Source: Gammaproteobacteria bacterium (lineage in GTDB: Bacteria > Pseudomonadota > Gammaproteobacteria > RBG-16-57-12). From it: a DNA stretch of 64,000 nt. Below the pieces are notes generated by a model, which saw only the letters and a program-made list of their open reading frames with translations, made no database searches and was not told where the DNA came from. The position numbers and the translations under genes were made by a program. Below, piece after piece: positions 7,048-27,706 of the stretch (positions within the stretch are counted from its first letter, which is position 1; each line of letters begins with the position of its first letter). The stretch spans positions 1,470 to 65,469 of the forward strand of contig JAKIVC010000011.1 in assembly GCA_021647245.1 (NCBI GenBank). Reading direction: 5' to 3'.

Positions 7048-8871
7048 TTAGGGCTCAGCTAAAAACCGCAACGGATCGATCAGCGTAGGTGGCCGCACCC
7101 CACTCCCTTCAATAAACAGTTTGTGCCAGATAGAAAACTGCAACAGCGCATAAATATTTTTAGTCACATCACCCTTCTGTTGCTGGCGTTTCAATAACTT
7201 CTCAACGCCACGCCGCTGCATCCACTCGGCAATGGCCGGGCTTTCGAGTAACGCCATGCCAACCTTACCTAAATAATCACTTGCCAACCAGTCGCCCACT
7301 GGCACACTAAACCCTCGTTTCTTTTGCCAGAAATGCTCACTGGGAAGGTGGCGGCTCGCCCATTTTTTCAGAAACATCTTACCCTGTTTGCCCTCTATTT
7401 TCAGGCCATCCGGCAGTGACAATCCAAACTCGATCACACGATGATCAACAAATGGCAGCCGCCCCTCCAAACCCCAGCTCATTAACATACGATCCGCTTT
7501 AACCAACAGATTATCGGGCAGTGCAGTGGTAATATCCACATATTGACGACGCTGCAAATCACTCCACTCAGTCGGTGCCTCCTGCCAGGCGGTAATAATG
7601 GGGGCACGCCACTGATCAGCTCGTTGTAGCAGTTTTTCTGAGAAGAGTTGTTTTGGCAAACCACCGCGGAAATTACCCCCGGTACGGAAGCCGCCCGAAC
7701 CGGGGTAGAGCCTGTTTTTCAACAGGCTCTCTAACTTCCCTGGACGATAGCGACCATAGCCTGCAAAGGCTTCATCTCCCCCTTCACCCGAGAAAACCAC
7801 TTTCAAATCCTGTGCGGCCTCTTCAGCCAGTAGCGAGGTGGGGAGATTGGCAAAATCACGCATCAGATCATCTGCCGCCCAGGTACTGTAAACCAGACGC
7901 TGCAACATCGACTCAGCCGTCGGACGGATAATGGTGTGTTGGCTATTGAAGTGTTTAGCAATGCTCTCTGCCGTAGAGAGTTCATCGCCGACACTGGAGT
8001 TGCAAAAGCCCAGCGAGAAGGTTCGAATGGGTTCAGCTTTGTAACGACTTAGCAGTGCTAATAGGGTTGTTGAGTCCACCCCGCCTGATAGGAACAGTCC
8101 AAACGGCACATCCGCACGCATATGCTGCGTCATCACTGTTTCCATCAGTGAATCAAATTCAGACTCTGCCTCAGCATAGCTGATGTCACGCGGCTCGACA
8201 CCCAGCGCCGACCAGTAACGCAGGCGGTCAACTACCCGCCCCTGCTCTACCGTCACACACTCACCGGGCAACAGCTGCTCAATACCCGAGAATAGCGTCT
8301 CCCGACCACTGGCGTTCTGATTTTGTAGAAACTGGATTAATGCCGAGGGATTTATTGACGGCTTTTCAGCCAGTGCCGGTAACAGAGCCTTAATCTCTGA
8401 AGCGAAGCAAACCCCTTCCGAGGTCTCTGCTATAAACAGCGGTTTCATACCAAGGCGATCACGCGCTAAAATCAAACGCTGCTTTTTACGATCAAACAGT
8501 GCAAAGGCAAACATGCCACCAATATGCTCAAGAAAAGTATCACCGTATACCGCATAGGCGTGCAGAATGGTTTCACAGTCAGAGTGGGTTTGAAATTGAC
8601 GGCCTTGATCTTCAAGCTCTTTGCGCAACTCAAGGTGATTATAGATCTCACCATTGGCCACCAAAATCAGGCCATACTGCTCATCAATAAAGGGTTGATC
8701 ACCACCCGCGAGGTCGATAATTGAGAGACGGGTGTGAGCTAGACCCAAAGAGCCGTCACAGTAAACATCTTGGTGGTCTGGGCCTCGATGAGCCAAAGAT
8801 GAAATAGCGGCCTGCAATCGTTCGCCATCAACGGGAAGAACCGCGTTATACAAGCCCATAATTCCGCACAT
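7048..8871 (-). CDS. asparagine synthetase (glutamine-hydrolysing) family amidotransferase in glycan cluster
   Basis: N-terminal MCGIMGLY (class II amidotransferase Cys nucleophile), SGGVDS PP-loop motif; start taken at the MCGI Met (track ORF begins 4 codons upstream). Confidence 0.85.
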   Translation of the reverse strand: MCGIMGLYNAVLPVDGERLQAAISSLAHRGPDHQDVYCDGSLGLAHTRLSIIDLAGGDQPFIDEQYGLILVANGEIYNHLELRKELEDQGRQFQTHSDCETILHAYAVYGDTFLEHIGGMFAFALFDRKKQRLILARDRLGMKPLFIAETSEGVCFASEIKALLPALAEKPSINPSALIQFLQNQNASGRETLFSGIEQLLPGECVTVEQGRVVDRLRYWSALGVEPRDISYAEAESEFDSLMETVMTQHMRADVPFGLFLSGGVDSTTLLALLSRYKAEPIRTFSLGFCNSSVGDELSTAESIAKHFNSQHTIIRPTAESMLQRLVYSTWAADDLMRDFANLPTSLLAEEAAQDLKVVFSGEGGDEAFAGYGRYRPGKLESLLKNRLYPGSGGFRTGGNFRGGLPKQLFSEKLLQRADQWRAPIITAWQEAPTEWSDLQRRQYVDITTALPDNLLVKADRMLMSWGLEGRLPFVDHRVIEFGLSLPDGLKIEGKQGKMFLKKWASRHLPSEHFWQKKRGFSVPVGDWLASDYLGKVGMALLESPAIAEWMQRRGVEKLLKRQQQKGDVTKNIYALLQFSIWHKLFIEGSGVRPPTLIDPLRFLAEP

Positions 8872-9349
8872 ATTGTCTAACATCCAACAGTAAGATTAAA
8901 TTTCAGATCCCAGTATACGTTAAATCAACGCCATTAACCGCCCAGCTAACATTCGATGTTTGTCAAGATAGTTGTCCAGCACTATGCTGATTCTCCTCTA
9001 ATTCCAGGCCCTTTTTTACCCTAATCTTTTGGATTCAACCACACTTCACCTGCATCAAGGTTGCTATTTAATGTATACTAAAAATCAATAATTAATTGTC
9101 CAGTCGATACTCCTCCCTGACCATGCGTGTAGCTGGATGATACTGTTAGAGGCCTTTGCAGCAGAAGGGTGTGCGAAAAAAATAGATAAAACTTAACTGA
9201 TTGAGGCGAAAAGCGCAGGGAGTAGCGAGCTACTCACAATATTTTCAACGAAAATCAGGTCTGTTTTAACCTTTTTTTATCCTTGCATCCTCTCGTGCAA
9301 AGGCCTTTGTTAGTGTTAGGTCAATAATTTCCGGATACCACCCTTTTTC

Positions 9350-10462
9350 ATGACAACACATCAAAAGCCCAAAGTGACTATTTTCATCTCTTTTTCTGGT
9401 GAAGGTGGTGTCGAACGAATGATCAGCAACCTGATTCATGAGTTTATTCGCTTGGGGCACCCTGTCGAGCTGCTGCTCATAAAAGCTCGCGGGGAGCATC
9501 TAAAGCACCTGCCGAAAGAGGTTAACATCGTTAAACTTGGCTCTAATCACAGTGCCATGACACTACTACCCTTAGTGCGTTATCTGCAAAAAGAACAACC
9601 AAAATGTATATTGGTTGCAAAGCATCGTGCCATTGTAATTGCAGTTATCGCTCGCATGCTGGCGGGTGTTAACACTCGAATTGTGGGCCGTTTAGGTACC
9701 AACCTATCTCGAGCTTTAGAAGGAAAAAGCGCGCTAAGAAAATGGCTTTGGCACGCCCCTATGCGTAAAATTTATCCGAAAGTTGATATGATTATTCCTG
9801 TCTCAAAAGGAGTATTGGACGATATAACCTCTATCACAAAACTGAGTTCTGAAAAATTACGGGTAATTTGCAATCCGGTAATCACTCCTGAAACGGATCG
9901 ATTAGCACAACAATCAATCAGCCACCCTTGGTTTTCAAAAGGGCAGCCTCCCGTGATTCTTGCTGCTGGGCGATTCACCCTCCAAAAAGACTTTATCACT
10001 CTCATTAAGGCATTTGCCGAGGTTCGTCAGCAACGTGCCTGCCGCTTAGTACTGCTCGGCCACGGCGCACTTCGAAGTGAATACGAAGCACTTGCGACAA
10101 CACTAGGTGTTGATAAAGAGCTATCCATGCCAGGGTTTTCCAATAACCCATACCCTTACATGAAACAAGCCTCACTATTTGTACTTTCCTCTGCATGGGA
10201 AGGGTCACCCAATGTGCTCTCTGAGGCACTAGCACAAGGCACACCTGTTGTTGCCACCGACTGCCCCAGTGGACCAAGTGAAGTTTTGCAAGGTGGTAAA
10301 ATTGCCCCGCTGATTCCTGTTAGTGATGTAAAAGAGATGGCCAAAGCGATTATTAAAACCCTAGACAATCCGCCGCCAGCCGAGTCACTTCGTGCAGCTG
10401 TACAAGAATATACCGTAAAGATCAGCGCACAACGCTATCTTGAGGCTCTAGGCATTCATTGA
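9350..10462 (+). CDS. glycosyltransferase family 4
   Basis: 370 aa; GT4-like fold motifs (SSAWEGSPNVLSEALAQGTPVVATDCPSGPSEVL); divergent from the asnB-like operon across a 466-nt AT-rich intergenic region. Confidence 0.8.
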   Translation: MTTHQKPKVTIFISFSGEGGVERMISNLIHEFIRLGHPVELLLIKARGEHLKHLPKEVNIVKLGSNHSAMTLLPLVRYLQKEQPKCILVAKHRAIVIAVIARMLAGVNTRIVGRLGTNLSRALEGKSALRKWLWHAPMRKIYPKVDMIIPVSKGVLDDITSITKLSSEKLRVICNPVITPETDRLAQQSISHPWFSKGQPPVILAAGRFTLQKDFITLIKAFAEVRQQRACRLVLLGHGALRSEYEALATTLGVDKELSMPGFSNNPYPYMKQASLFVLSSAWEGSPNVLSEALAQGTPVVATDCPSGPSEVLQGGKIAPLIPVSDVKEMAKAIIKTLDNPPPAESLRAAVQEYTVKISAQRYLEALGIH

Positions 10463-10511
10463 ACAAGTTCGATGTTAAAATAAACCATAAGCTGATTTAA
10501 GTAGGCAACTG

Positions 10512-11165
10512 ATGCTGTTATCCCATCGCTATCAATTTCTTTTTGTTCATATCGCCAAAACAGGGGGCACCAGCGTCCGTGCAGCACTGGTTAGAAAAGC
10601 AATGCTTGACCCATACCGGTTACCCATGTGGTGTTGCAGCAAGTTGAGCCACCTTACGAGACATAAACTAGCCAGCAAACTTCCCCGACACTCAAAAATC
10701 ATCGCGGCAAAAGAGATGCTGCCAAAAGAGTTTTTTGATAGTTTATTTAAATTCGGATTTGTACGAAATCCTTGGGATTTACAGGTCAGTTCGTTTCACC
10801 ATATCAAACGAGAGCGCCCTCAATACCTTTTTGGCCACGATAACTTCAAAGATTTCTTGAAGTTCAAATTTGACCCAAAGCGCCCCTATCAGTACCACAT
10901 AGATACCTCTATTGAGCTACAAAGTGACTATCTAGTTGATCTGCACGGAAATATTATTGTCGATTATATTGGCCGCTACGAAAACTTTCATAATGATTTT
11001 TCTCACGTTTGCGAAAAGATAAAAATTAAATGCGCTCTACCAGAAAAGCGTATTTCAACAGACCGAACGAAGGATTTTCGTAACTACTACGATGATGAAT
11101 CTGTTGAGCTGGTCGCTAGGCATTTCAAGCGAGATATCGAGCTGTTGGACTATTGCTTTGAGTAG
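10512..11165 (+). CDS. sulfotransferase family 2 (carbohydrate sulfotransferase-like)
   Basis: 217 aa; 5'-PSB-like motif FVHIAKTGGTS and 3'-PB-like motif VRNPWDLQVSSFHH; AT-rich codon usage. Confidence 0.65.
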   Translation: MLLSHRYQFLFVHIAKTGGTSVRAALVRKAMLDPYRLPMWCCSKLSHLTRHKLASKLPRHSKIIAAKEMLPKEFFDSLFKFGFVRNPWDLQVSSFHHIKRERPQYLFGHDNFKDFLKFKFDPKRPYQYHIDTSIELQSDYLVDLHGNIIVDYIGRYENFHNDFSHVCEKIKIKCALPEKRISTDRTKDFRNYYDDESVELVARHFKRDIELLDYCFE

Positions 11166-11236
11166 CAAACACCGGCCTCACATTATAAAAAACCATATAT
11201 CCAACTCCTACAATCATCACAAACTAGGCTAACACA

Positions 11237-12241
11237 TTGAAAAGTCTTTATATTGCCAGATCTCCCCTACAATTATTCAATTGTATCGAGGCACGCAATC
11301 GTTTCTCTGGAGATGATGAAAATATTCTTGTGGCGGCATATAAAAATGATACAGATAAAAACCTACTGCACCAACTGATTGATAAAAACGATTGGAACCA
11401 AGTTTATCTACATTCAATTAAAGCCAATGCAGACCAATACTCACTCATCATAAAACTATTTGTGCAGCACTCTAAAGTAGACACTTTATACATTGGCGAT
11501 TATACAAGCTCAATCAACTTTTATATTAACATTACAAGGCCAAAAAAAATCGTAATGGTTGATGATGGTATCGCAACCTTAAAAATAGTGGCGATGATAA
11601 ACTCCGGCTCTTTACATAAAACAAAGAAACACTTGAAAAGCAAAATGAGTGTGCCAACAATTATTGTTAGAGCAATTTGTCAGACATCTCCTAAATATCT
11701 ATATAGGTCTGACTTTTTCACTATGTATAACTTACAAGGACTTGGTCTTTCAGATAGAACCATCACGAACGACTACAGAATGTTCAAAAAAAACATTACA
11801 GGCTTGTCTGACGAAAAAACCTGTTTTTTTATTGGCACCAGCATGGAGGATTTATTGATCAGTAAAGCCTGCTACGAAAAATATTTTAAAATTCTTGCTG
11901 CTTATTTTGATAAAGAGAAATGGGTTTATGTTTTACATAGAAAAGAGTGTGCCGAGTACGTTGCACTCGTCGCAAAAAAATTTGGCATTCCTATTGTTCG
12001 CTTTAATAACATCATAGAGTCGGAGTTTTTTATTCAGAAAATTACACCCACCTCTATATCATCATTCTGCTCTTCTGCGTTGGATACAATAGAGGCTATA
12101 TATAACCCAAAAATCAAACTTCTGAAATTTGATGAAAATGACCTCATACCTACCAAAAAAGAAGCTCTTCGCAACTACTATAAATACCAAGCCAACAGAG
12201 GGATCAACGTTATCCATTTCAATGAGTACACCAAGAAGTGA
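11237..12241 (+). CDS. hypothetical protein, AT-rich island; possible glycosyl/nonulosonic-acid transferase
   Basis: 334 aa ORF with apparent TTG start; no motif I can name with certainty; context between sulfotransferase and pse operon. Confidence 0.4.
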   Translation: MKSLYIARSPLQLFNCIEARNRFSGDDENILVAAYKNDTDKNLLHQLIDKNDWNQVYLHSIKANADQYSLIIKLFVQHSKVDTLYIGDYTSSINFYINITRPKKIVMVDDGIATLKIVAMINSGSLHKTKKHLKSKMSVPTIIVRAICQTSPKYLYRSDFFTMYNLQGLGLSDRTITNDYRMFKKNITGLSDEKTCFFIGTSMEDLLISKACYEKYFKILAAYFDKEKWVYVLHRKECAEYVALVAKKFGIPIVRFNNIIESEFFIQKITPTSISSFCSSALDTIEAIYNPKIKLLKFDENDLIPTKKEALRNYYKYQANRGINVIHFNEYTKK

Positions 12242-12250
12242 CTCTATGCA

Positions 12251-13852
12251 TCAACCTAGCTTAAGCATATTGATATAGCTTATCCAATCCTGCAGATAAC
12301 TTTTCGAATGCAATCCATACATTTTCATAAATTGATCAATGGCTTTTGAACGCTCACCTTTACCACTCTCTTTATCCAGATGGTGCAACTCTATTTTTGA
12401 GGTAAACCATACCTTACTCGACTGCAACGATTGATAAACTTTAGATGCCTCTGGGCGTATTTGATAGTCACAAGGATCGGAAACTATTCGAAATTCAATA
12501 CCATTGGCGACGCATTCAGAAAGCCCTGTTGCGTTTGGATTAGTAAAAAATACCCATTCATATTCAGGCATAACCTCAACCAAGGAACCTGTTTGACCAC
12601 TACAGACAACCACAGCACCTTTAAGTTGATCAGGTATGGCTGCCTCATAATCTGAAAAGGGATTCCTAGGGTGCGCGCGCAATGTAATTTCATAGCCCAC
12701 ATCAACGAGTGATTCAAGCATCATTAAAGAGCGGTGTAAAGCTTGCTGCTGCTGCGTAACTCTAGGGCTCTGGATACTGTAAGCAAGTGTTGGCATGATA
12801 TGGGGCAAAACAACCAACACTGTTTTGCTTTTGGACTGTAAAAAGTGGCTTTTCGTCACGGAGAGTAGATCACCCAAGCGCTTTCGTGAAAGCCTAACTG
12901 AAGGTAGTGGATGGTCATTGTCTGAAAATTTATACCCCCAGGTTATATAGTAATCAAAGATTTCTCGTTCAGTTCGTTCCAACCAGGTTGGGTCGGTCTG
13001 CCCATAAAACCCACCATGCTGACTACCAATAAGGGGGATATTTCTTGCCTTCAAAATGGCAAGCAGTATCGCCTGCACTGGCTTATGTTGAAATTCGATA
13101 CCACAAATTAAAGCCTTCAGCCCACGAGCATGTTGCTTTGCATTTAGATAGCCGCTGGAAAACTGTTCGAGGAAGTAGGTAGGCATAAACAAAACTGAGC
13201 TCAGCAACAACTTATACTTCTTTTCAGGTAACTGCTTAGCGCCCATATGATCGGATAGCGAATTCAACATGGTCAAACGCATTTCAGAGTCTATTTCTAC
13301 GGGGGCATGGCTGCTTTTCTGTATTTTTACAAATTTAATATTACCCCTGAGCCGGCACTTTAAGATCATTCGCTCAATCGCAGTAAACGATAGACTGACA
13401 CCCACTTGCCTTTTATCGCACTCATCACTCAGCAACTCACTCAACGTAGCCATGTCAACGCGGGCCACTTCCTTGATCTCTGATGTGAGTATTGATGAAA
13501 TAGAGGCGTGTACATCATTGGATTTAGATAACCCATATATTAAACGGTGCACTTTTCCGTTAAATTCTGTTTCCGATAATCCATTAATATTATTAAAGGC
13601 AAACTGTTCATCAGTATGATCATTTATGACTGGCTCTAAATAACTACCATTGGCATAGATGTAAACATATAAATTGTAAAATGGTCGCAACAAAAATGAA
13701 AAATCAATGACATCCCCATGAAGCTCTGAGAGATGCTTACCCATAATCGATGACAGTAACGTCACCAAAGACTCAGGATTCAGCTCTAGAGACCCCGAAC
13801 TGCCAGTAGACTCATCTCCCAAAGTCTTTTGGAGGTTTTCAATAAAACTCAT
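12251..13852 (-). CDS. hypothetical transferase-like protein (contains R-x-HP-R-N-P sialyltransferase-like motif)
   Basis: 533 aa; ...ITLRAHPRNPFSDYE... resembles the HP motif of bacterial sialyl/nonulosonic-acid transferases; first gene of the minus-strand pse operon; AT-rich. Confidence 0.45.
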   Translation of the reverse strand: MSFIENLQKTLGDESTGSSGSLELNPESLVTLLSSIMGKHLSELHGDVIDFSFLLRPFYNLYVYIYANGSYLEPVINDHTDEQFAFNNINGLSETEFNGKVHRLIYGLSKSNDVHASISSILTSEIKEVARVDMATLSELLSDECDKRQVGVSLSFTAIERMILKCRLRGNIKFVKIQKSSHAPVEIDSEMRLTMLNSLSDHMGAKQLPEKKYKLLLSSVLFMPTYFLEQFSSGYLNAKQHARGLKALICGIEFQHKPVQAILLAILKARNIPLIGSQHGGFYGQTDPTWLERTEREIFDYYITWGYKFSDNDHPLPSVRLSRKRLGDLLSVTKSHFLQSKSKTVLVVLPHIMPTLAYSIQSPRVTQQQQALHRSLMMLESLVDVGYEITLRAHPRNPFSDYEAAIPDQLKGAVVVCSGQTGSLVEVMPEYEWVFFTNPNATGLSECVANGIEFRIVSDPCDYQIRPEASKVYQSLQSSKVWFTSKIELHHLDKESGKGERSKAIDQFMKMYGLHSKSYLQDWISYINMLKLG

Positions 13853-14110
13853 GGCTACTCCTGGCGAATATTATCTACTTGTTATTCAAGGATTTTAGAC
13901 TGCTCTAATCCCCAGATAGAGATGCAAAATAATGTGTAAAATATTGTTTTCACCGTGAAATCAAAAATAGGAGTCGCACCCATAGAAGTTGACCTCATTT
14001 ATTTCGAAGTGAGGACGTACAGCCGCTCTACTATGGCAACTATTGAAAGATTTACTTGATGGATAGTCACGACTAACTTCACTCATGAGCTGAGTGAAAA
14101 AAACATCGGA

Positions 14111-15178
14111 CTAATTGCTTCCCTTCATGTTATCAACACTCATCCAGCAAAGAGCCGTGCCACGCTTAATATCCATAGTTGCCTGCTTACCCAAAATCGC
14201 TTCAAAATATTTAGGCTTTAAACCAAATCCAGGACGTATGATACGAATATTTTCCTCGCTAAAATTCTCACCTTGCTCGATATCTTTCACTACATATATT
14301 GAACGACGAAACTTAAGGTTTTGCTCCTCAACCGGTTTCCGCTCATAACTAGCGATGCCTAATGCCTGCCATGCCATATAACTATCGGTGCAAAGCTGTT
14401 TTAGCTCTTGAGGCTCCAAGGAGAACTCAGAATCTGGCCCCTTATCTTTCCTGCTCAACGTCACGTGTTTTTCAATTACGCAGGCACCTAAAGCAACACT
14501 AGAAACAGAGACTACCGTTCCAAGAGTGTGATCTGAGAGGCCCGTTATAACATCAAATTTTTCAGCAAGATCAGGAATTGTAAGTAAATTTGACTGCTCT
14601 ACTGGAGCAGGGTAGCCACTAATACAGTGCAATAAAACCAGCTGCTGGCAACCATTATTACGAGCACACTCTACCGCCTCTTTTATCTCTTGAAAGTCGG
14701 CCATCCCCGTTGAAATAATCATCGGTTTGCCTGTTTGGGCTACCCGTTTTATTAAGGGTAAATCTATCGCTTCAAATGAGGCGATTTTATATGCTGGAGC
14801 ATCGAGTTCTTCCAATAAATCAACTGCGCTTGCATCAAAGGGGGAGCTAAAAATGGTAATACCGAGCTCTTTCGCTTTATCAAACATCGTTTTATGCCAT
14901 TCAAATGGAGTATGTGCCCAATCATAAAGCTGGTAGAGGTTGTAGCCATCCCATAAACCACCACGAATTTGAAACTCTTCACTATCACAGTCAATTGTCA
15001 TGGTATCCGCTGTATACGTCTGTATTTTTATGGCATCCGCACCCATCTTCTTGGCCATTTCGATGGTTTTTAACGCTCTTTGAATATCGCCATTATGATT
15101 TGCTGAAAGCTCAGCAATTATATAGGGAGGATGTTGCTTACCAATTTTCCGCCCATCAATAGTGATTATTTTTGACAT
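14111..15178 (-). CDS. pseI: pseudaminic acid synthase (NeuB family)
   Basis: IIAELSANHNGD..AKKMGADAIKIQTY..KIASFE..GLSDHT plus C-terminal SAF domain; start taken at the MSKIIT ATG (track start is GTG 4 codons upstream). Confidence 0.88.
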   Translation of the reverse strand: MSKIITIDGRKIGKQHPPYIIAELSANHNGDIQRALKTIEMAKKMGADAIKIQTYTADTMTIDCDSEEFQIRGGLWDGYNLYQLYDWAHTPFEWHKTMFDKAKELGITIFSSPFDASAVDLLEELDAPAYKIASFEAIDLPLIKRVAQTGKPMIISTGMADFQEIKEAVECARNNGCQQLVLLHCISGYPAPVEQSNLLTIPDLAEKFDVITGLSDHTLGTVVSVSSVALGACVIEKHVTLSRKDKGPDSEFSLEPQELKQLCTDSYMAWQALGIASYERKPVEEQNLKFRRSIYVVKDIEQGENFSEENIRIIRPGFGLKPKYFEAILGKQATMDIKRGTALCWMSVDNMKGSN

Positions 15179-15213
15179 AGTACTACCCACAAAAAACCCA
15201 TAAAAAACAAACG

Positions 15214-16734
15214 CTAAATACCATTAGAGCCGTCTGAATAAGAATAATATTTCCCATTCGACTGTTTATAACCCAATTTTTCAAACAACGCCCGTGATGA
15301 CTCATTTTCTTCATGCACTTCAGCAACAATAGTGATCGATGGGTAGCGTTGGCGTAATTTTGTTAACGCTGCTGTACCAACACCTCGACCATAATAATCG
15401 GAGGAGATTAATATCGAAACCTCATACTCACTATCTATCGACAGCTTATCCAAACGTAGAACCCCAACCGGGACCCCTTCAAGCATTATGATCAAATAGG
15501 GGTCTGGTGATGATACCCGCTTAAGAAACCAGCTCTCATGATGCTCATAAGCGGGCACTTCTGTATTTCGCGAGTATCGACGTGCACCATGCTCACTTTG
15601 CCATTTATATATCAGTTCAATATCGGACTGGGTAACAATACGTAATATGACACGCTTGTTCAAAGCAATATAATCTGCCACTCGTCCGGCGCCGCGTCCA
15701 TCGCAAATCTGGCTAGCGGCAGTGCTTAAGCCCATCAAATGATCCTCTGCATACGCCAGTGCATCTAAAATACTTTCGCTTTTAAGCTGCCTTCCTTCAC
15801 CAATAAAAATGACTGCGCCGAGCGTTGAAAGCTCTTCAGCAACTAGATGTTGATTTTCAGCCGTTTGAATTAAAATAGTCGGCAGCCCAAGGCAGCATCT
15901 CTCCCAGCTCGTGGTACCAGCTGCCCCTATGGCCAAATCAGCCTTAGCCATTAAATGAGCCATATTATTAACAGACGATAGTAGCTCTACACCAAAGTTG
16001 TATTGAGCGAGCTTTTCCTGCAAAGAGTGGTAATGTGGTGCCCCAGCACCCAATACAACGGTCACCTGCCACGCCTGATCAATGGCCATGGCTAATGCAT
16101 CCAATATTTTTTCTGAGATATTGTCTAGATCCATCCCTCCCATCGTCAGCAAAATATTCGAAACTCCATGCCGCTGACAGCGAGCCTCTAAAGCCTTTTT
16201 ACGCAGAGCGGGAAACTCTTGTCTCAAAAGGCTGAACTGACTTCCTAGCAATATCTCAGTATCACCACGCTCAAGCCAATGGAGGTAATTAACAGCATTG
16301 CGGCCAACGGTTTGATCCAGTAGCAAGTCGCACTGGTGAGGCCGGTTTGCCAAGTCATCAATTACCAGGATAGACTCGACATGCTGTGCCATGCTCGCCT
16401 CCCAACGTGCATCAATACCGTAATGGTCGACTATCAACCAGTCCAATTTAGCAGTACTCTTCACTATTCTCTGGCACAACTCAGCGTCTTTTTGCCAGGG
16501 TACGCCAAGCCAAGAATTTGTATGGTCAACGGCAACATCCTCTTGCTGCCTAGGCAGCAGTGTAATGTGGTGACCCTGTTCTTTTATTAACCCGGCAAGG
16601 TGCCCTTTAATATCAGCACTCATAAATAGAATATCGTGACCACGCCCCTTCAACTCAGCAGCAAGTGCCAGACACCGCATCACATGGCCACTGCCGATGC
16701 TAACAGAGCTATCAGCGCGTATCGCAATATTCAC
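15214..16734 (-). CDS. pseG: fused UDP-2,4-diacetamido-2,4,6-trideoxy-beta-L-altropyranose hydrolase (PseG) / GNAT N-acetyltransferase (PseH-like)
   Basis: 506 aa; N-terminus MNIAIRADSSVSIGSGHVMRCLALA is PseG-like (GT28-fold hydrolase). The C-terminal ~150 aa (acetyl-CoA binding region ...YGRGVGTAAL...) is GNAT-fold. Confidence 0.78.
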   Translation of the reverse strand: MNIAIRADSSVSIGSGHVMRCLALAAELKGRGHDILFMSADIKGHLAGLIKEQGHHITLLPRQQEDVAVDHTNSWLGVPWQKDAELCQRIVKSTAKLDWLIVDHYGIDARWEASMAQHVESILVIDDLANRPHQCDLLLDQTVGRNAVNYLHWLERGDTEILLGSQFSLLRQEFPALRKKALEARCQRHGVSNILLTMGGMDLDNISEKILDALAMAIDQAWQVTVVLGAGAPHYHSLQEKLAQYNFGVELLSSVNNMAHLMAKADLAIGAAGTTSWERCCLGLPTILIQTAENQHLVAEELSTLGAVIFIGEGRQLKSESILDALAYAEDHLMGLSTAASQICDGRGAGRVADYIALNKRVILRIVTQSDIELIYKWQSEHGARRYSRNTEVPAYEHHESWFLKRVSSPDPYLIIMLEGVPVGVLRLDKLSIDSEYEVSILISSDYYGRGVGTAALTKLRQRYPSITIVAEVHEENESSRALFEKLGYKQSNGKYYSYSDGSNGI

Positions 16735-17431
16735 TACGAGCCCTCACCGTGCTCAAGCCAAGCTCGATACATAAGCTCAGCACGCAACCAATCTTCCGGC
16801 GTATCAATGTCTTGCACCAAATGCCTTGGTAGAATAATAGGGAGTGAGTGGGTTGCAAACATGGTTCTGTCATTCAAAAAAGCCTGAGCACGTCCCCAGT
16901 AGAACTGCCCAGCATCATGATAAGCCTCTTCTAGGTCTTGAGAGCGCTGTAACATTGTTTCAGGGAAAATCGCCTCAACGCCTCCATTACTACAAATACG
17001 AATGGAGCGTTGAATGGGGAAGGCAAAACTGGTGACAGAAAATGAAAATATTTTATTGCTGTCATTTAACGCTTGGTACGACTGCTTAAGATACTCCGAC
17101 TGCACAAAGGGAGCTGTGGCATAAAGGCAGCAGGCATACTCAACTTGAGTGAGGCTGTTTTCAAACCACTGTATAGCATGTTTAACAACCGCATTAGTGC
17201 CCGTATAGTCATCAGAAATCTCTTTGGGGCGAATAAAGGGTATCTCTGCTCCATACTTTTGTGCAACCGTCGCAATCTCTTCATCATCGGTCGAGACAAC
17301 GATTTTGTCGAACAATCCTGTCTCTTGAGCCACCTCAATTGAATAGGCAATAATGGGCTTTCCACAAAAGCTTTTAATATTTTTTCGAGGAATCCGCTTA
17401 CTGCCGCCACGAGCGGGAATGACTGCAATAT

Positions 17432-17435
<4 letters not shown>
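16734..17435 (-). CDS. pseF: pseudaminic acid cytidylyltransferase (CMP-Pse synthetase)
   Basis: 233 aa; MNIAVIPARGGSKRIPRKNI acylneuraminate cytidylyltransferase motif. Confidence 0.88.
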
Positions 17436-19596
<2,161 letters not shown>

Positions 19597-19622
19597 CTAC
19601 GACCGTAAGCATTAAATTTCAT

Positions 19623-19838
19623 CTACTCAGATTTCATCTGGTACTCCGCCCCACAATAAGGACACTTACCCTGGCCATCCTTCATTTTAATGTAGACGCG
19701 TGGGTGTGAGCTCCAGAGGCTCATGCCATTCATTGGACAGTGCAGTGGCAGCTCATCTTTGCTCACCGTATATTTATTCTCTTTATTGGGTAATACCTCG
19801 CCCACTTCTGGGCCAAGTTGTGAAATTCCGGATGTCAT
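19623..19838 (-). CDS. small zinc-finger protein (zf-CHCC-like; C-x-H...C-x-x-C)
   Basis: 71 aa; LHCPMNG....CPYCGAEY; strong GGAGG Shine-Dalgarno 5 nt upstream of ATG. Confidence 0.5.
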   Translation of the reverse strand: MTSGISQLGPEVGEVLPNKENKYTVSKDELPLHCPMNGMSLWSSHPRVYIKMKDGQGKCPYCGAEYQMKSE

Positions 19839-19903
19839 GTTGCCTCCCGTTGTCTCTGTTTTTTATCTGTTTTCGGCACCCCACAACGGGGTGCCTGTCT
19901 TGC

Positions 19904-20830
19904 TTAAACCAGTGTTAGCCAATCACTACGGCTTTGGTCGCGACCATGTACAATATCAAAGTACATGGTTTGCAGTTTTTCAGTGATCGGACCACGGCTT
20001 CCGGCTCCAATTGTCCGACCATCCAGTTCACGAATAGGCGTTACTTCTGCGGCCGTACCGGTGAAGAAGCACTCGTCGGCCACATAAACTTCATCACGGG
20101 TGATGCGTTTTTCCCGGACTTCAATGCCCAGCTCTTCACAAAGTGACATGATGGTTCCACGGGTGATGCCATCCAGTGCCGAGGTTAACTCGGGTGTATA
20201 GACGATACCATCACGAATCATGAAGAAATTCTCTCCACTTCCTTCTGCCACAAAACCATCAACATCCAGTAGCAGTGCTTCATCATAGCCATCTCGCAGC
20301 GCTTCGCTCAGTGCCAGCATCGAGTTCATGTAGTTGCCATTGGCTTTCGCTTTGCACATGGTGATGTTGACGTGGTGACGGGTAAAGGAGGATGTTTTAA
20401 TGCGAATGCCCCGCTCCAGCGCCTCTTTTCCTAAATAGGCGCCCCACGACCAGGCCGCTATCATCACATGTGCTTTCAGGTTATCTGCTCGCAGACCCAT
20501 TCCTTCTGAGCCAAAAAAGACCATTGGCCGAATATAGGCCGAATCAAGGTTGTTCTCTTTTACTGCGGCAATGGTCGCTTTGTTGAGAGTCTCTTTGTCA
20601 TATGGCATCGGCATATTCAAAATATGTGCTGAGCGAAAAAGACGATCTGTATGCTCTTGCAGGCGAAAAATAGCAGCACCTTTGTCGGTGTGATATGCGC
20701 GTACCCCTTCAAAAACACCCATGCCATAATGCAGCGTGTGAGTCAGTACGTGTACTTTGGCATCACGCCACGGCACCATCACGCCATCTAACCAGATGAC
20801 CCCATCTCGATCATCCATACCCATACTCAT
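19904..20830 (-). CDS. ilvE: branched-chain amino acid aminotransferase
   Basis: VIWLDGVMVPWRDAKVHVLTHTLHYGMGVFEGVRAY matches IlvE; start chosen at the ATG with GAGGAG SD 7 nt upstream (track start is TTG further upstream). Confidence 0.92.
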   Translation of the reverse strand: MSMGMDDRDGVIWLDGVMVPWRDAKVHVLTHTLHYGMGVFEGVRAYHTDKGAAIFRLQEHTDRLFRSAHILNMPMPYDKETLNKATIAAVKENNLDSAYIRPMVFFGSEGMGLRADNLKAHVMIAAWSWGAYLGKEALERGIRIKTSSFTRHHVNITMCKAKANGNYMNSMLALSEALRDGYDEALLLDVDGFVAEGSGENFFMIRDGIVYTPELTSALDGITRGTIMSLCEELGIEVREKRITRDEVYVADECFFTGTAAEVTPIRELDGRTIGAGSRGPITEKLQTMYFDIVHGRDQSRSDWLTLV

Positions 20831-20866
20831 ACTGCGGCTCCTCAAATCTAATAAATTCTATAACGG

Positions 20867-23740
20867 CTACTCAGCAACGATAACTTGCTGCCAGATTCTA
20901 GATACCGCTTGGCGATAGTCCAAATGCTCGTCTTCATCGGCTAGTGCTGGCTGCTCCTGCAAGGAGAGGCGGTGCCCTTCTGCGCGATAACAGCGATAAG
21001 CATCACACAATAACTCAACATCATGAGTTGATAGCAGGTCCTGCTCTGCAAACATCTTCAAAATTCGGATGTTGTCAGTAAAACGACACAACTCAGGATA
21101 TTCAGCCGACCAAGCCAGAACCCCGTATTGCACCATAAATTCGATGTCAGCGATACCTCCTTGCCCCTGTTTCAGGTCAAATTTACCGACTATTTTATTT
21201 GCCAGTGCCTCGCGCATCTTGCCACGCATCTCACGCACTTCACGTTGCAATAGGCGGGTTTCCCGTGGCTGACAGAGAATAGCCGCTCGAATCGCTTCAA
21301 ATTTGGCTTGTACGACGTCATCACCCACCACCACACGGGCACGCACTAAGGCCTGGTGCTCCCATGTCCACGCTCTGCTTTTCTGGTAGTCAGCAAAGGC
21401 TTTGACGCTACTCACCAATAGACCCGAGGCACCGCTGGGGCGCAGCCGCATATCGGCATCATAGAGCACTCCTGAGGGGGTATGGGCGGTCATCATATGG
21501 ATGATGCGCTGCCCCAGGCGTGCAAAAAAAACAGTGTTATCGATAGGCTTTTCACCACAGGTTTCACCTGCTGAGCCCGCATGTAGAAAGACCAGATCCA
21601 GATCAGAGCTATACCCCAATTCATGACCACCCAGCTTTCCATAGGCGACAATCGCAAAGGCGAGGTCACACGCCTTATCATCAATGCAGCAGACGGGGCT
21701 ACCGTGACGAGCCACCATATAGGACCACGCCACTTCTGAAATCTGCTCTAGCAGTAACTCGGCAATCCAGGTCAGGTGGTCACTCACTTTCATCAACGGC
21801 AAGGCATTACTGAGGTCAGCTGCGGCCACCCGCAACACATTGGTTTGTTTGAAGTGACGCAGCTGCTCCATCACCGCCTCCAGGTCACCCTCATCAATCG
21901 CCGCCAGGCGCTGTTTTAACTCGGCCTCTAAGCCCGCCCTATCGGGTGGTGAGTAGAGGCTTCTGGGGTCAAGCAGCTCGTCCAGTAGCATGGGATATTT
22001 TTGTAACAACCGGCCAATCCAGCTGCTCCCTGAAAAGAGGTAGACCAGTTGAGAGAGCGCCAGTGGGTTTTCAATCAGCAGTGCTACATAGGCTGAGCGA
22101 CGCGCAATCGTCTCCATCAAGCCCATCACCCGCTCCAAGGTTACACTACAGTTATCCAGTATTGCGATGGCCGCTAGTAACAGCGGCATCAGTTGGTCCA
22201 TGCGATCACGGGCGATATGACTCAAGGTCTGCATCGATCTTGAGTGTCGCAACCCTTTCAGCTGCACCCAAACAGCGGCTGGATCCTCAAAGCCTGCTTT
22301 TTCGAGTGATGCCGCCACCTCGTCATCAAACTCATCAGATAGCCATAAAGCGGCCAAACCATCAGCGTCATCATATCCTTTTTGGGGGGCGCTAATAATC
22401 TGTTCAAAATGACCTTGCACCTTGTCCCGGTGCTGCTGCAATACGGCTTGATAGCGATACCAACTGGAAAACCCCATGCCGATAGCCAGTCGCAGCTTTC
22501 CCTCATCATCTGTTGGCAAGTCGTGGGTCTGCTGGTCTCGCCACTGCTGGAGACGGTGCTCGCTGTTACGCAAAAAAAGATAGGCCTCTTTAAGCTCATT
22601 CACCACGTAGTCAGGTAGACAGTTCTGCTCAACCAGCTGCTCGAGAATGTAGAGGATTTCACGACGCTGTAACTCTCTACAGCGGCCACCACGAATCAGC
22701 TGAAAGACCTGACCGATAAACTCCACCTCACGAATCCCTCCGGGGCCAAGTTTGACATTGTCTTGTCTGCCCTTGCGCTTCACCTCCTGCATAATCATGC
22801 GTTTCATCTCACGCAGTGCATCAAATACGCCATAGTCGATGTAGCGGCGATAGACAAAAGGCCTCAACAATCCCATTAGCACTTCACCTGCCGCTTGATC
22901 CCCCGCACAGACTCGGGCTTTAATCATTGCGTAGCGCTCCCACTCTCGGCCATGTATCTGGTAATACTGCTCCATGCCGTTGAATGAGCTAACCAGTGGC
23001 CCACTCTCTCCAAAGGGTCGCAGGCGCATATCTACACGAAAAACCTGGCCGTCTTCAGTGGTGTTATCCAGCGCCTGCACTACTTTTTGCCCCAGTCGAC
23101 GGAAAAACTCTTCATTGCTGATAACACGCTTTTCACCATCAGTTTCGCCCTGCTCAGGATAAGCAAAAACAAGATCCACATCGGATGAGTAATTAAGTTC
23201 GCGGGCCCCCAGCTTCCCCATCCCCAAAATCACCAGCTGCTGTGGCTCGCCTTGGGGATTACGCGGCGTGCCGTGGCTCTCAACAAGCCAGCCATAATGA
23301 AGCGCCAATGCCAGTTGAAGTGAGCTGTCAGCCAGATCAGAGAGGTCATTTGTGGTCTCAACCAGATCGGCCACACCCACCAGATCGCGCCATGCAATAC
23401 GGACCATTTCGCGTCGTCGCTGCGTTCTCAGTAGGCGATTTAAACCCACTTCATCGTCAATCAATGGCGGCTGTGCCCGCAGTAGCCCGAGCATTTTCCC
23501 TTTATCATAAGTCGTATCAAGATCACCACTCTCAAGCAGTGACTCCATCATCAGCGGATAGCGCAACGCCGCATTCTGTACGAACTCACTACAACCCCAG
23601 ACCAAAAAGAGTTGCCGCTTAAGTTCTGGCGGGCTAAATAGAGAGTCTTGCCGCCCCGCCTGTTGGAGCTTTTCACAGTAGAGCACCCATTGTGCATCCA
23701 AACTTTCGTGCCATGATGAAGGAAGTGGAAGATGGGACAT
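20867..23740 (-). CDS. glnE: bifunctional glutamine synthetase adenylyltransferase/adenylyl-removing enzyme
   Basis: 957 aa; two nucleotidyltransferase domains (GKLGGHELGYSSDLDLVF / GMGKLGARELNYSSDVDLVF). Confidence 0.93.
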   Translation of the reverse strand: MSHLPLPSSWHESLDAQWVLYCEKLQQAGRQDSLFSPPELKRQLFLVWGCSEFVQNAALRYPLMMESLLESGDLDTTYDKGKMLGLLRAQPPLIDDEVGLNRLLRTQRRREMVRIAWRDLVGVADLVETTNDLSDLADSSLQLALALHYGWLVESHGTPRNPQGEPQQLVILGMGKLGARELNYSSDVDLVFAYPEQGETDGEKRVISNEEFFRRLGQKVVQALDNTTEDGQVFRVDMRLRPFGESGPLVSSFNGMEQYYQIHGREWERYAMIKARVCAGDQAAGEVLMGLLRPFVYRRYIDYGVFDALREMKRMIMQEVKRKGRQDNVKLGPGGIREVEFIGQVFQLIRGGRCRELQRREILYILEQLVEQNCLPDYVVNELKEAYLFLRNSEHRLQQWRDQQTHDLPTDDEGKLRLAIGMGFSSWYRYQAVLQQHRDKVQGHFEQIISAPQKGYDDADGLAALWLSDEFDDEVAASLEKAGFEDPAAVWVQLKGLRHSRSMQTLSHIARDRMDQLMPLLLAAIAILDNCSVTLERVMGLMETIARRSAYVALLIENPLALSQLVYLFSGSSWIGRLLQKYPMLLDELLDPRSLYSPPDRAGLEAELKQRLAAIDEGDLEAVMEQLRHFKQTNVLRVAAADLSNALPLMKVSDHLTWIAELLLEQISEVAWSYMVARHGSPVCCIDDKACDLAFAIVAYGKLGGHELGYSSDLDLVFLHAGSAGETCGEKPIDNTVFFARLGQRIIHMMTAHTPSGVLYDADMRLRPSGASGLLVSSVKAFADYQKSRAWTWEHQALVRARVVVGDDVVQAKFEAIRAAILCQPRETRLLQREVREMRGKMREALANKIVGKFDLKQGQGGIADIEFMVQYGVLAWSAEYPELCRFTDNIRILKMFAEQDLLSTHDVELLCDAYRCYRAEGHRLSLQEQPALADEDEHLDYRQAVSRIWQQVIVAE

Positions 23741-23878
23741 TAAGCGACCTTAATTGGTTTTATATTGGGATTCAGTGTAGCAAGCTGTGCCGGCCAATTC
23801 ATTAAAGCTCTCTGAGGGCACACCGATAAAACTTTCAGACAAGTCATTGTGACAACGGGCACAGAAGGGCTACAACTT

Positions 23879-25057
23879 ATGGATATAAAGGATTACCTGC
23901 GCATCATGGTGAAATATGATGCCTCCGACCTCTATCTCACCACGGGTGCACCACCCAGTGCAAAAATCCAGGGTGAGATCAAACCACTCAGCAAAGATAC
24001 AATACCACCTGGCTCAGTTAAAGATGTCGCCTACAAAATAATGAGTGCGGAACAAATCGCCGAATTCGAAACCACACCCGAGATGAACCTAGCAATTTCT
24101 GAACCGGGTGTCGGCCGTTTCCGGGTTAATATTTTCCAACAGCGCAACCAGGTTGCAATGGTGATTCGTAATATCAAGATTGAGATTCCTGAGATGGAAA
24201 CACTGGGACTGCCCGATACTCTTAAAGATATCATTATGCAGAAGCACGGGCTGGTTCTCTTTGTGGGTGGCACCGGTTCAGGAAAGTCCACCTCCCTCGC
24301 CTCACTTATCGATTATCGCAACAGCAACAGCTCAGGCCACATCATCACCATTGAGGACCCGATTGAATTTGTCCATCGCCATAAAAAATCGATCGTCAAT
24401 CAGCGTGAAGTCGGTGTTGATACCGCCAGTTATGCAGATGCGCTTAAAAACACCCTTCGCCAGGCACCTGATGTCATCCTGATTGGCGAGATCCGCGACC
24501 GGGAAACCATGGAGCACGCACTCTCTTTTGCAGAGACGGGCCACTTGGCAATCTCCACCTTGCACGCCAATAACTCAAACCAGGCGCTGGACCGAATCAT
24601 CAACTTCTTCCCCGAAGATCGGCATAAGCAGCTGTTAATGGACCTATCACTCAATATACGGGCATTTGTCTCACAACGGCTGATACCGACACTGGATGGC
24701 AAACGCTGCGCGGCTATCGAGATTTTGCTGGGTACGCCGTTGATTCAGGACATGATATTGAAAGGGCAGGTTAAGGAGATAAAGGAGGTGATGGAGAAGT
24801 CAGAAAACCTCGGCATGCGTACATTTGATTCGGCCCTCTACCACCTCTACAAGGCAGGCAGAATCACCCTGAATGAAGCATTAAAGAATGCCGATTCAGA
24901 AAACAACCTTCGCCTGCGTATTTCACTCTCTGAAGGTGATGTCTCGACACTTGCCGACGACAGTGCCTTAAAAATGAAAGGTGAGGACGATGCGCCACAA
25001 TCAATAAAACCATCGAGACCCAAAATGCCCGCTGGCGGGCTCTCTATAGATGACTAA
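23879..25057 (+). CDS. pilU: type IV pilus retraction ATPase PilU (PilT family)
   Basis: Near-collinear with PilU: LRIMVKYDASDLYLTTGAPP, Walker A GGTGSGKSTSLASL, Walker B ILIGEIRD; start at ATG with AAGGG SD (track start is GTG 10 codons upstream). Confidence 0.8.
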   Translation: MDIKDYLRIMVKYDASDLYLTTGAPPSAKIQGEIKPLSKDTIPPGSVKDVAYKIMSAEQIAEFETTPEMNLAISEPGVGRFRVNIFQQRNQVAMVIRNIKIEIPEMETLGLPDTLKDIIMQKHGLVLFVGGTGSGKSTSLASLIDYRNSNSSGHIITIEDPIEFVHRHKKSIVNQREVGVDTASYADALKNTLRQAPDVILIGEIRDRETMEHALSFAETGHLAISTLHANNSNQALDRIINFFPEDRHKQLLMDLSLNIRAFVSQRLIPTLDGKRCAAIEILLGTPLIQDMILKGQVKEIKEVMEKSENLGMRTFDSALYHLYKAGRITLNEALKNADSENNLRLRISLSEGDVSTLADDSALKMKGEDDAPQSIKPSRPKMPAGGLSIDD

Positions 25058-25087
25058 TAAAAAGGCCATGGAGATCCATGGCCTTTT
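25058..25087. terminator. bidirectional rho-independent terminator between pilU (+) and hemE (-)
   Basis: aaaaa-GGCCATGG-agatc-CCATGGCC-ttttt: perfect 8-bp GC-rich stem flanked by an A-run and a T-run. Confidence 0.8.
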
Positions 25088-25112
25088 TCATTTCCAGAGA
25101 GTGCGAACGACA

Positions 25113-26177
25113 TTACTTGTGGTATTTAGCACTCAACTCATGAACTGCATTAACAAAAGCACCCGCATGTTCAGGGTCTACATGCTGGTGGATACCGTGT
25201 CCCAGGTTGAAAATATGACCTGAACCTTCGCCATAACCTTCTAGGATAGTCGCCACTTCTTGGCGAATACGCTCAGGAGAAGCGTAGAGTGTTGATGGAT
25301 CCATATTACCCTGCAGGGCAACTTTATCACCCACCCGCGCACGGGCATCTGCAATATCAATGGTCCAGTCCAGCCCCAGCGCATCACAACCAGTGTCAGC
25401 CATCGCTTCAAGCCACTGGCCACCGCCTTTCGTGAACAGTATAACCGGCACTTTACGACCATCTTTCTCTCGAATCAGGCCATCAATAATCTGCTGCATA
25501 TAACGCAGTGAAAACTCTTTGTAATCACGCGGTGTCAGGCAACCACCCCAAGTATCAAATATTTGCACCGCTTGTGCACCCGCTTCGATCTGGGCATTCA
25601 GGTAAGAGGTGACTGATTTTGCAGTTGTCTCCAGCAGTTTGTGCATGAGATCCGGGCGATCAAACATCATTCCCTTCACCTTGGCATAATCTTTGGTGCC
25701 CCCCCCTTCAACCATGTAAACCGCCAGTGTCCACGGGCTACCGGAGAAACCGATCAAGGGAACACGGCCATTCAGCTCGCGGCGAATAGTGCGCACAGCA
25801 TTCATTACATACTGCAACTCACCTTCAGGGTCAGGCACAAATAGTTTGTTAACATCCGCCTCAGTGCGTACCGGATTATCAAAAACCGGCCCTTCACCCG
25901 CTTCAAAACGTAATCCGAGACCCATGGCATCAGGGATGGTCAAGATATCTGAAAAGAGAATTGCCGCATCCAATGGATAACGTTCAAGCGGCTGAATAGT
26001 CACTTCACATGCCAGATCTGCATTCTTACAAAGATCCATAAAGCTCCCAGCCTGAGCACGCGTTGCCTTATACTCTGGCAAATAACGACCCGCTTGGCGC
26101 ATCATCCAGACCGGCGTGACATCAACAGGCTCTTTCAGCAAGGCACGTAAAAAACGATCATTCTTCAATTCAGACAT
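25113..26177 (-). CDS. hemE: uroporphyrinogen decarboxylase
   Basis: 354 aa; [15 protein letters not shown] signature. Confidence 0.93.
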
Positions 26178-26257
26178 CTAACTTCCTTTCCCCAATATAG
26201 TTTTTTTATGGCCCAGGCGATTATGCGAGAGTCGGTCGTATAATTGTAAAAGAGGCT

Positions 26258-27682
<1,425 letters not shown>

Positions 27683-27706
27683 TCATTAATCTTGTAATGG
27701 CGGCAC

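Follow-up and report, generated by a model that had tools for sequence, protein, structure and literature searches.

We analysed a 64,000-nucleotide stretch of a Gammaproteobacteria bacterium genome (NCBI GenBank assembly GCA_021647245.1, contig JAKIVC010000011.1, positions 1,470 to 65,469 of the forward strand; hereafter the window), in which a sulfotransferase gene and two transferase-like open reading frames of 334 and 533 codons (orf334 and orf533) lie within a region of lipopolysaccharide (LPS)-core and pseudaminic acid (Pse) genes, as identified by Pfam and NCBIfam annotation. We consider this region probably to be a hypervariable locus for an LPS glycan (core or outer core), situated beside zf-CHCC, ilvE and glnE and built in two layers. 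The first layer (9350-11165) would consist of a family 4 glycosyltransferase (GT4) and a family-2 sulfotransferase dependent on 3'-phosphoadenosine 5'-phosphosulfate (PAPS), a pair conserved across related Gammaproteobacteria, whilst the second (11166-19622) would be strain-specific cargo comprising the pathway to cytidine monophosphate (CMP)-activated Pse and two soluble GT-B-type enzymes. The sulfotransferase would most likely O-sulfate an LPS-core sugar, possibly the one added by the GT4. The product of orf334 would probably move Pse from CMP-Pse to lipid A-core at the cytoplasmic face, with that of orf533 probably adding a second nonulosonate residue or assisting. We infer that LPS receives both Pse and sulfate. 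Assembly would proceed directly on lipid A-core, which fits the absence of flippase, polymerase and ligase genes (Wzx, Wzy and WaaL) from 1-26 kb of the window. A single glycan bearing both Pse and sulfate, as predicted in an initial annotation of this DNA, is plausible. In kind the locus is ordinary, a well-annotatable glycan locus rather than a new kind of system.

The boundary between the two layers emerges from blastn comparison with L001 (GCA_022712945.1; labels of this form denote the loci compared here), in which a sulfotransferase gene encoding an 83% identical protein directly precedes zf-CHCC, ilvE, glnE, pilT and hemE and pse genes are missing. Window positions 10512-11143 correspond to L001 10001-10632 (75.6%) and 19642-29260 to L001 10972-20653 (78.8%), and the intervening 11166-19622 (about 8.4 kb), which encodes orf334, orf533, pseI, pseG-H, pseF, pseC and pseB, stands where L001 has a spacer of roughly 300 bp. 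Because it is collinear with the island-free L001, the sulfotransferase gene is a backbone gene lying outside the indel. Between its sulfotransferase and zf-CHCC genes L001 has an empty slot; in the same place L020 carries a GT2 gene, L024 an Acyl_transf_3 gene and L021 GT4 and WecB UDP-GlcNAc 2-epimerase genes. The initial annotation had assigned the sulfotransferase, orf334 and orf533 to one AT-rich insert at 10470-13860. Its three open reading frames (217, 334 with a TTG start, and 533 amino acids) are present where it placed them and contain the motifs it quoted (HIAKTGGTS, RNPWDLQVSS and R-x-HP-R-N-P), but the indel excludes the sulfotransferase gene, and the GT4-sulfotransferase pair is kept in relatives without pse genes.

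The sulfotransferase and its glycosyltransferase partner

Judged from its sequence, the 217-amino-acid protein (MCF6218023.1; 10512-11165, plus strand) is a genuine family-2 sulfotransferase of PF03567 (Sulfotransfer_2) with intact PAPS-binding motifs. A profile hidden Markov model (HMM) search matched it to PF03567 over its full length (49.1 bits against a cut-off of 22, E = 1.1e-12; residues 3-214 aligned to profile positions 5-251 of 252), upholding the family named in the initial annotation. HIAKTGGTS occupies residues 13-21 and RNPWDLQVSS residues 85-94, and within them the 5'-phosphosulfate-binding motif (5'-PSB, K16-T-G-G-T-S21) and the 3'-phosphate-binding motif (3'-PB, R85-N-P-W-D-L-Q-V-S93) are invariant in 13 homologues. 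A profile of the sulfotransferase family further matched the cytosolic sulfotransferase structure 7r0o (E = 1e-6), with RNPxDxxVS aligned to RNPSDVAVS. The protein thus has a PAPS-type fold and the 5'-PSB and 3'-PB motifs in common with the carbohydrate sulfotransferases of PF03567. To describe such a sulfotransferase as uncommon, as had been done, is misleading, for the family comprises 2079 clusters at E <= 1e-3, the best 120 of which are 64-83% identical to the window protein, and homologues occur in Allochromatium, Marichromatium, Thiobaca, Thioflavicoccus and Fontimonas. Sulfotransferase genes have been reported in marine capsular polysaccharide (CPS) and bacterial polysaccharide clusters (PMC11641403, PMC11766843); compared with strain-specific CPS sulfotransferases, this family of about 220 amino acids is far more conserved and widespread. 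The LPS of Sinorhizobium meliloti is sulfated by a dedicated sulfotransferase, LpsS (PMC12445080), to which we liken the window protein in its proposed role.

Gene neighbourhoods were compared across 80 metagenomic sulfotransferase loci, 60 of which retained enough upstream flank, and neighbours were clustered de novo over 85 loci. In the window the sulfotransferase gene begins 49 bp after the end of a glycosyltransferase gene, GT4b (9350-10462, plus strand; Pfam Glycos_transf_1 and Glyco_transf_4). Of the 60 loci, 13 had an orthologue of GT4b immediately upstream of the sulfotransferase gene and in the same orientation. The GT4b family was the top-ranked cluster in the unbiased neighbour clustering (18/85 loci), and its closest members end a median of 46 bp before the sulfotransferase start. 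Downstream, a zf-CHCC gene was found in 11 of 56 loci, whilst in three (L030, L057 and L098) the sulfotransferase was followed by a heptosyltransferase and a GT4, the series continuing into waaA in L098. The Fontimonas locus (L016) reads glnE-GT4-Glf-DUF5672-GT4-sulfotransferase-AsnB, then four further GT4 genes, GT9 and ilvE, and the sulfotransferase of L096 is likewise embedded in a glycosyltransferase-rich LPS-core cluster. These associations support the view that the sulfotransferase serves a glycan (LPS core) and does so independently of Pse. Orthologues of the AsnB-like gene of the window also occur near the sulfotransferase in L016 (8668-10485, directly downstream), L019, L021-23, L034 and L078, and this amidotransferase may act on that glycan too, by amidating one of its uronic or ulosonic acids.

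Other neighbourhoods weigh against a glycan role. About three quarters of the sulfotransferase loci lack an adjacent glycosyltransferase gene, and in 19 of 56 the surroundings are of Chromatiaceae type (MBL-fold or DUF2189) and devoid of glycan genes. Because most family members thus have no glycan gene beside them, the role of the sulfotransferase in glycan modification is unproven, and we allow, with rather low probability, that it instead has a conserved housekeeping function with an acceptor other than LPS, be it lipid, small molecule or protein, and is encoded at an ancestral ilvE/glnE site where LPS genes also accumulate. Such a function would suit the Chromatiaceae contexts (MBL-fold, DUF2189, xerC) and those of other relatives (adk, a tRNA synthetase gene, fpg), as well as a conservation of 62-84%, very high and not what enzymes of variable surface glycans usually show. 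It would also fit the SulP-family sulfate permease gene of L001 (8247-9779, minus strand), which adjoins the sulfotransferase gene directly upstream on the opposite strand, although neighbour clustering over the 85 loci yielded this single SulP and no recurrent PAPS-synthesis or other sulfur genes beside the sulfotransferase. It is harder to reconcile with a GT4 directly upstream on the same strand as the most frequent single neighbour, or with the embedding of the sulfotransferase in glycosyltransferase-rich LPS-core clusters (Fontimonas, L030, L057, L098 and L096).

Composition and mobility of the variable region

As the initial annotation had stated, the three genes are poorer in GC (sulfotransferase 0.416, orf334 0.346, orf533 0.414) than the flanking waa and housekeeping genes (0.50-0.56 in waaA, hldE, gmhA, lpxL, the heptosyltransferase gene, ilvE and glnE). 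The lowest 1-kb window (0.351) lies at 11.5 kb, against 0.514 +/- 0.026 outside the region. GC content is therefore not uniform across the locus, but the dip is far wider than the three genes, extending over about 8.7-19.8 kb and taking in GT4b (0.463) and all of the pse genes (0.41-0.465). No meaningful direct or inverted repeats were detected at the island flanks, no tRNA gene lies within 14 kb, and none of the genes annotated within or beside the island encodes an integrase.

The GT4b-sulfotransferase pair has itself diverged further than its surroundings. Between the window and L024, whose ilvE product is 96% identical in amino acid sequence, the pair is only 71% identical in nucleotide sequence (L024 6851-8614 against window 9363-11125), compared with 84-88% for the backbone. 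This suggests allelic replacement of, or diversifying selection on, the pair, and places it in a glycan locus that undergoes recombination.

Placement of the sulfotransferase within the insert was considered and ruled out by the synteny with L001. We nonetheless keep as a rival of lower probability, a little less likely than the housekeeping function discussed above, the idea that one horizontally acquired AT-rich cassette brought in the sulfotransferase, the two transferases and the pse genes together, with the sulfotransferase specifically sulfating the Pse glycan, because of the excess divergence of the GT4b-sulfotransferase pair and the arrangement in L004, L006 and L019. These three loci carry the same gene order (AsnB-GT4b-sulfotransferase-orf334-orf533-pseI; 73-88% amino acid identity) with a different left flank (tilS, purE and purK). 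The block may accordingly be mobile as a whole, and all of the genes concerned are lower in GC than their flanks. However, the sulfotransferase gene is lower in GC than its flanks even in the one island-free relative checked (L001; 0.45 against 0.50), and in both L001 and L002 it occupies the same chromosomal position (83% amino acid identity), followed by the 300-bp spacer only and with no pse genes. The GT4b-sulfotransferase pair is, moreover, retained beside unrelated cargo in L020, L021 and L024, and pse genes are missing around most members of the sulfotransferase family, a pseI-like gene lying near the sulfotransferase in just 2 of the 80 loci.

Candidate pseudaminic acid transferases

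Within the cargo, five genes of the Pse pathway exceeded their NCBIfam equivalog cut-offs, all on the minus strand: pseI, encoding pseudaminic acid synthase (14111-15190; TIGR03586, 528 bits against 340), pseG (15214-16734; TIGR03590, 298 against 153), pseF, encoding CMP-pseudaminic acid synthetase (16734-17435; TIGR03584, 356 against 206), the aminotransferase gene pseC (17432-18589; TIGR03588, 557 against 424) and the inverting 4,6-dehydratase gene pseB (18586-19587; TIGR03589, 545 against 408). With the waa genes that flank them, these bear out the initial description of an LPS-core and pseudaminic acid locus. Of the full pseBCFGHI set then listed, B, C, F, G and I stand, whereas the only counterpart of PseH is a C-terminal GNAT domain of the PseG protein, which scored 31 bits with TIGR03585 against a cut-off of 93. 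As the same PseG-GNAT fusion of about 507 amino acids recurs in the unrelated pse-LPS loci L007 (6337-7860) and L011 (2452-3975), this domain probably supplies the PseH step. Pse is the sole nonulosonate pathway encoded at the locus.

The 334-amino-acid product of orf334 (MCF6218024.1; 11237-12241, plus strand) has a TTG start that is kept in a 77% identical orthologue. It and its 533-residue neighbour had been regarded as orphans, but the former is named by NCBI as an 'alpha-2,8-polysialyltransferase family protein' and the latter carries the PF27859 label 'LIC12162'. The orf334 protein falls below every Pfam threshold, with no match to the polysialyltransferase family PF07388 even at E <= 10, and its close relatives, of which a word-indexed search found 10, have no significant Pfam match. 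A profile search of 1.84 billion representatives extended the family to 2233 relatives at E <= 1e-3 (248 at E <= 1e-30); among 50 sampled, 22 matched PF07388 (best E = 1.8e-14) and 28 did not, and 6 matched GT52. Comparison with hhalign of the orf334 family and PF07388-positive neighbours of its homologues gave a full-length alignment (94% probability, E = 1e-7) that pairs DDG with PDG, HRKE with HPRD and CSSALDT with CSTALLT. E18, A19, D109, G111, N178, G200, H234 and E261 do not vary among the 50 relatives, so that in the DDG motif D109 and G111 are fixed and D110 nearly so. Searches of PDB sequences with orf334 and orf533, using single sequences as well as profiles, returned nothing significant; the predicted structural model of orf334 adopts a GT-B fold nearest to a solved polysialyltransferase of GT38, and also matches a GT52 lipooligosaccharide (LOS) sialyltransferase.

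The orf334 family was encountered in five independent contexts, all of them LPS-core clusters (waaA, lpxK, GT9, hldE, gmhA), four of which show the pseB-C-F-GH-I operon, whole or in part. Genes for Pse synthesis adjoin members of the family here and in L004-L008, L011 and L019, and in L007 and L011 the orf334 homologue directly follows pseI. Given its GT38/GT52 fold and motifs together with these LPS-core and pse contexts, orf334 ranks ahead of orf533 as the best candidate for the Pse transferase, the evidence for it being the stronger. The comparison is with the GT38 polysialyltransferases (PF07388), such as Mannheimia haemolytica SiaD (PDB 5WC6/5WCN), than which orf334 is shorter at 334 amino acids, and with the GT52 Neisseria LOS sialyltransferase NST/Lst (PDB 2YK4), which its model matches in fold. 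Recognised features of bacterial sialyltransferases include the D/E-D/E-G and HP motifs (Freiberger 2007, as cited in PMC5420450). Unlike the GT38 and GT52 enzymes, orf334 has H-R-x-E at its 'HP' motif, the invariant H234 being followed by R235 rather than proline (family consensus P-H-R-x-E), and it is linked to pse rather than neu genes, so that its donor would presumably be CMP-Pse. A polymerising activity like that of the polysialyltransferases is not indicated. Every orf334-family gene seen was paired with a second CMP-sugar-transferase-like gene from another family, of the LIC12162, PF07388 or Capsule_synth type (L007 8964-11014, L011 5101-9552, L009 4744-7062 and window 11237-13852), and L011 has two PF07388 genes and a Wzy_C gene.

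The initial annotation had singled out the 533-amino-acid product of orf533 (MCF6218025.1; 12251-13852, minus strand) as the candidate pseudaminyltransferase and had guessed at a TIGR04331-like affiliation. The latter was borne out by an HMM match of 62 bits over residues 149-485 (E = 4.6e-17), below the trusted cut-off of 225 and leaving the N-terminal 150 or so residues outside the model. The former stands in so far as the protein is a divergent LIC12162-like one, linked to nonulosonate genes at every locus seen, but the overlooked orf334 is the better supported of the two. Precomputed annotation assigned PF27859 'LIC12162', a label without a score, to orf533 and to all five of its relatives, this close family numbering only 6 among 5.8 billion proteins. 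A scan of genome contigs with the LIC12162 alignment recovered only four distant loci (three Pelagibacteraceae and one Oligoflexia), and at all four, neuB/pseI-, pseF- or pseC-like genes lie no more than a few kb away. These distant homologues share with orf533 the motifs QHGGxYGQ, R-x-H and (N)ATGxxE. The motif first likened to the sialyltransferase HP motif (LRAHPRNP, residues 391-398) does not keep its proline, the Pelagibacter proteins reading RLHE.

The orf533 protein looks GT-B-like and forms a second candidate nonulosonate transferase. Its motifs and nonulosonate context are shared with the LIC12162 family (TIGR04331, PF27859) of Leptospira and other O-antigen and nonulosonate loci, the Pelagibacter members of which are longer (about 590 amino acids). 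The family is known but, to our knowledge, uncharacterised, with no member of demonstrated activity. One paper noted a member beside neu genes (PMC6679464). No significant hhalign match was obtained between the LIC12162 alignments and the orf334 family, the PF07388-like neighbours or the Capsule_synth protein. The top non-significant alignment with the orf334 family, which placed RAHPRN on PHRxE and NATGLSE on SSALDT, was discounted as evidence.

It is improbable that orf334, orf533 or both serve a different purpose, either transferring Kdo or another CMP- or cytidine diphosphate (CDP)-activated unit instead of Pse, or adding Pse to flagellin or another protein, given that the only nonulosonate pathway encoded here is that for Pse, that orf533 lies directly downstream of pseI at the end of the pse operon with orf334 converging on it, that homologues of orf334 directly follow pseI elsewhere, and that waa genes flank a region with no maf or flagellin genes nearby.

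Relation to known systems and other features of the window

The known repertoire of enzymes transferring pseudaminic or legionaminic acid to glycans is small (PMC5420450, PMC7439481), and loci for LOS decorated with nonulosonates have been described (bioRxiv 10.1101/254235). The locus and its relatives point to two candidate families for attaching Pse or other nonulosonates, namely a sizeable GT38/GT52-like clade and the LIC12162 family. The Maf/PseE flagellin glycosyltransferases also use CMP-activated Pse but have protein acceptors, and they belong to other sequence families than orf334 and orf533. Tannerella Tanf_01245, a TagB-like GT-B enzyme that likewise uses CMP-activated Pse, carries D/E-D/E-G and HP motifs and is encoded beside a pse operon (PMC5420450), but it acts on protein and differs in sequence family from both.

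Should the sulfotransferase sulfate the LPS core, this would be an envelope modification that is widespread and so far undescribed in these bacteria, with consequences for outer-membrane charge, for the binding of cations and for interactions with phage and antimicrobial peptides. A further reading, in our view doubtful, is that GT4-sulfotransferase pairs constitute a widespread, undescribed system of LPS-core O-sulfation in Chromatiales-like Gammaproteobacteria. Core sulfate would then give the negative charge that core phosphorylation by WaaP gives elsewhere; a WaaP-like kinase gene is absent from the 26 kb examined, whereas in Pseudomonas the homologous glnE-ilvE-waa locus has WaaP next to WaaG. 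Separately, and equally doubtful, orf334-type proteins would be the first GT38/GT52-like LOS pseudaminyltransferases.

To the left of the sulfotransferase gene the window encodes waaA, hldE, gmhA, lpxL, a GT4, a heptosyltransferase, the AsnB-like glutamine amidotransferase (7048-8883, minus strand; Pfam Asn_synthase, GATase_7 and GATase_6) and GT4b. The last two are divergent and separated by a 466-bp intergenic stretch (8884-9349) with a GC content of about 0.42-0.43, probably the promoter region of a presumed GT4b-sulfotransferase-orf334 unit. On the right, the variable slot is anchored by the small zf-CHCC gene (19623-19838, minus strand; 71 amino acids, 83% identical to the PF10276 gene of L001), which lies between pseB and ilvE and is followed by ilvE, glnE, a pilT-like gene and hemE. 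Only 36 bp separate the zf-CHCC stop from the pseB start, and transcription from ilvE/zf-CHCC may therefore continue into the pse operon. Consensus scans found promoter- and terminator-like sites at the level of shuffled sequence (27 against 26.3 and 12 against 10.9, respectively).

Elsewhere in the window, a cluster resembling a contractile injection system or phage tail occupies 42323-63673 on the minus strand. It encodes DUF6519, Baseplate_J and Phage_base_V spike proteins, a subtilase with two P-domains, Pvc16_N and an AAA ATPase with a winged-helix domain, together with several large open reading frames without a Pfam match.

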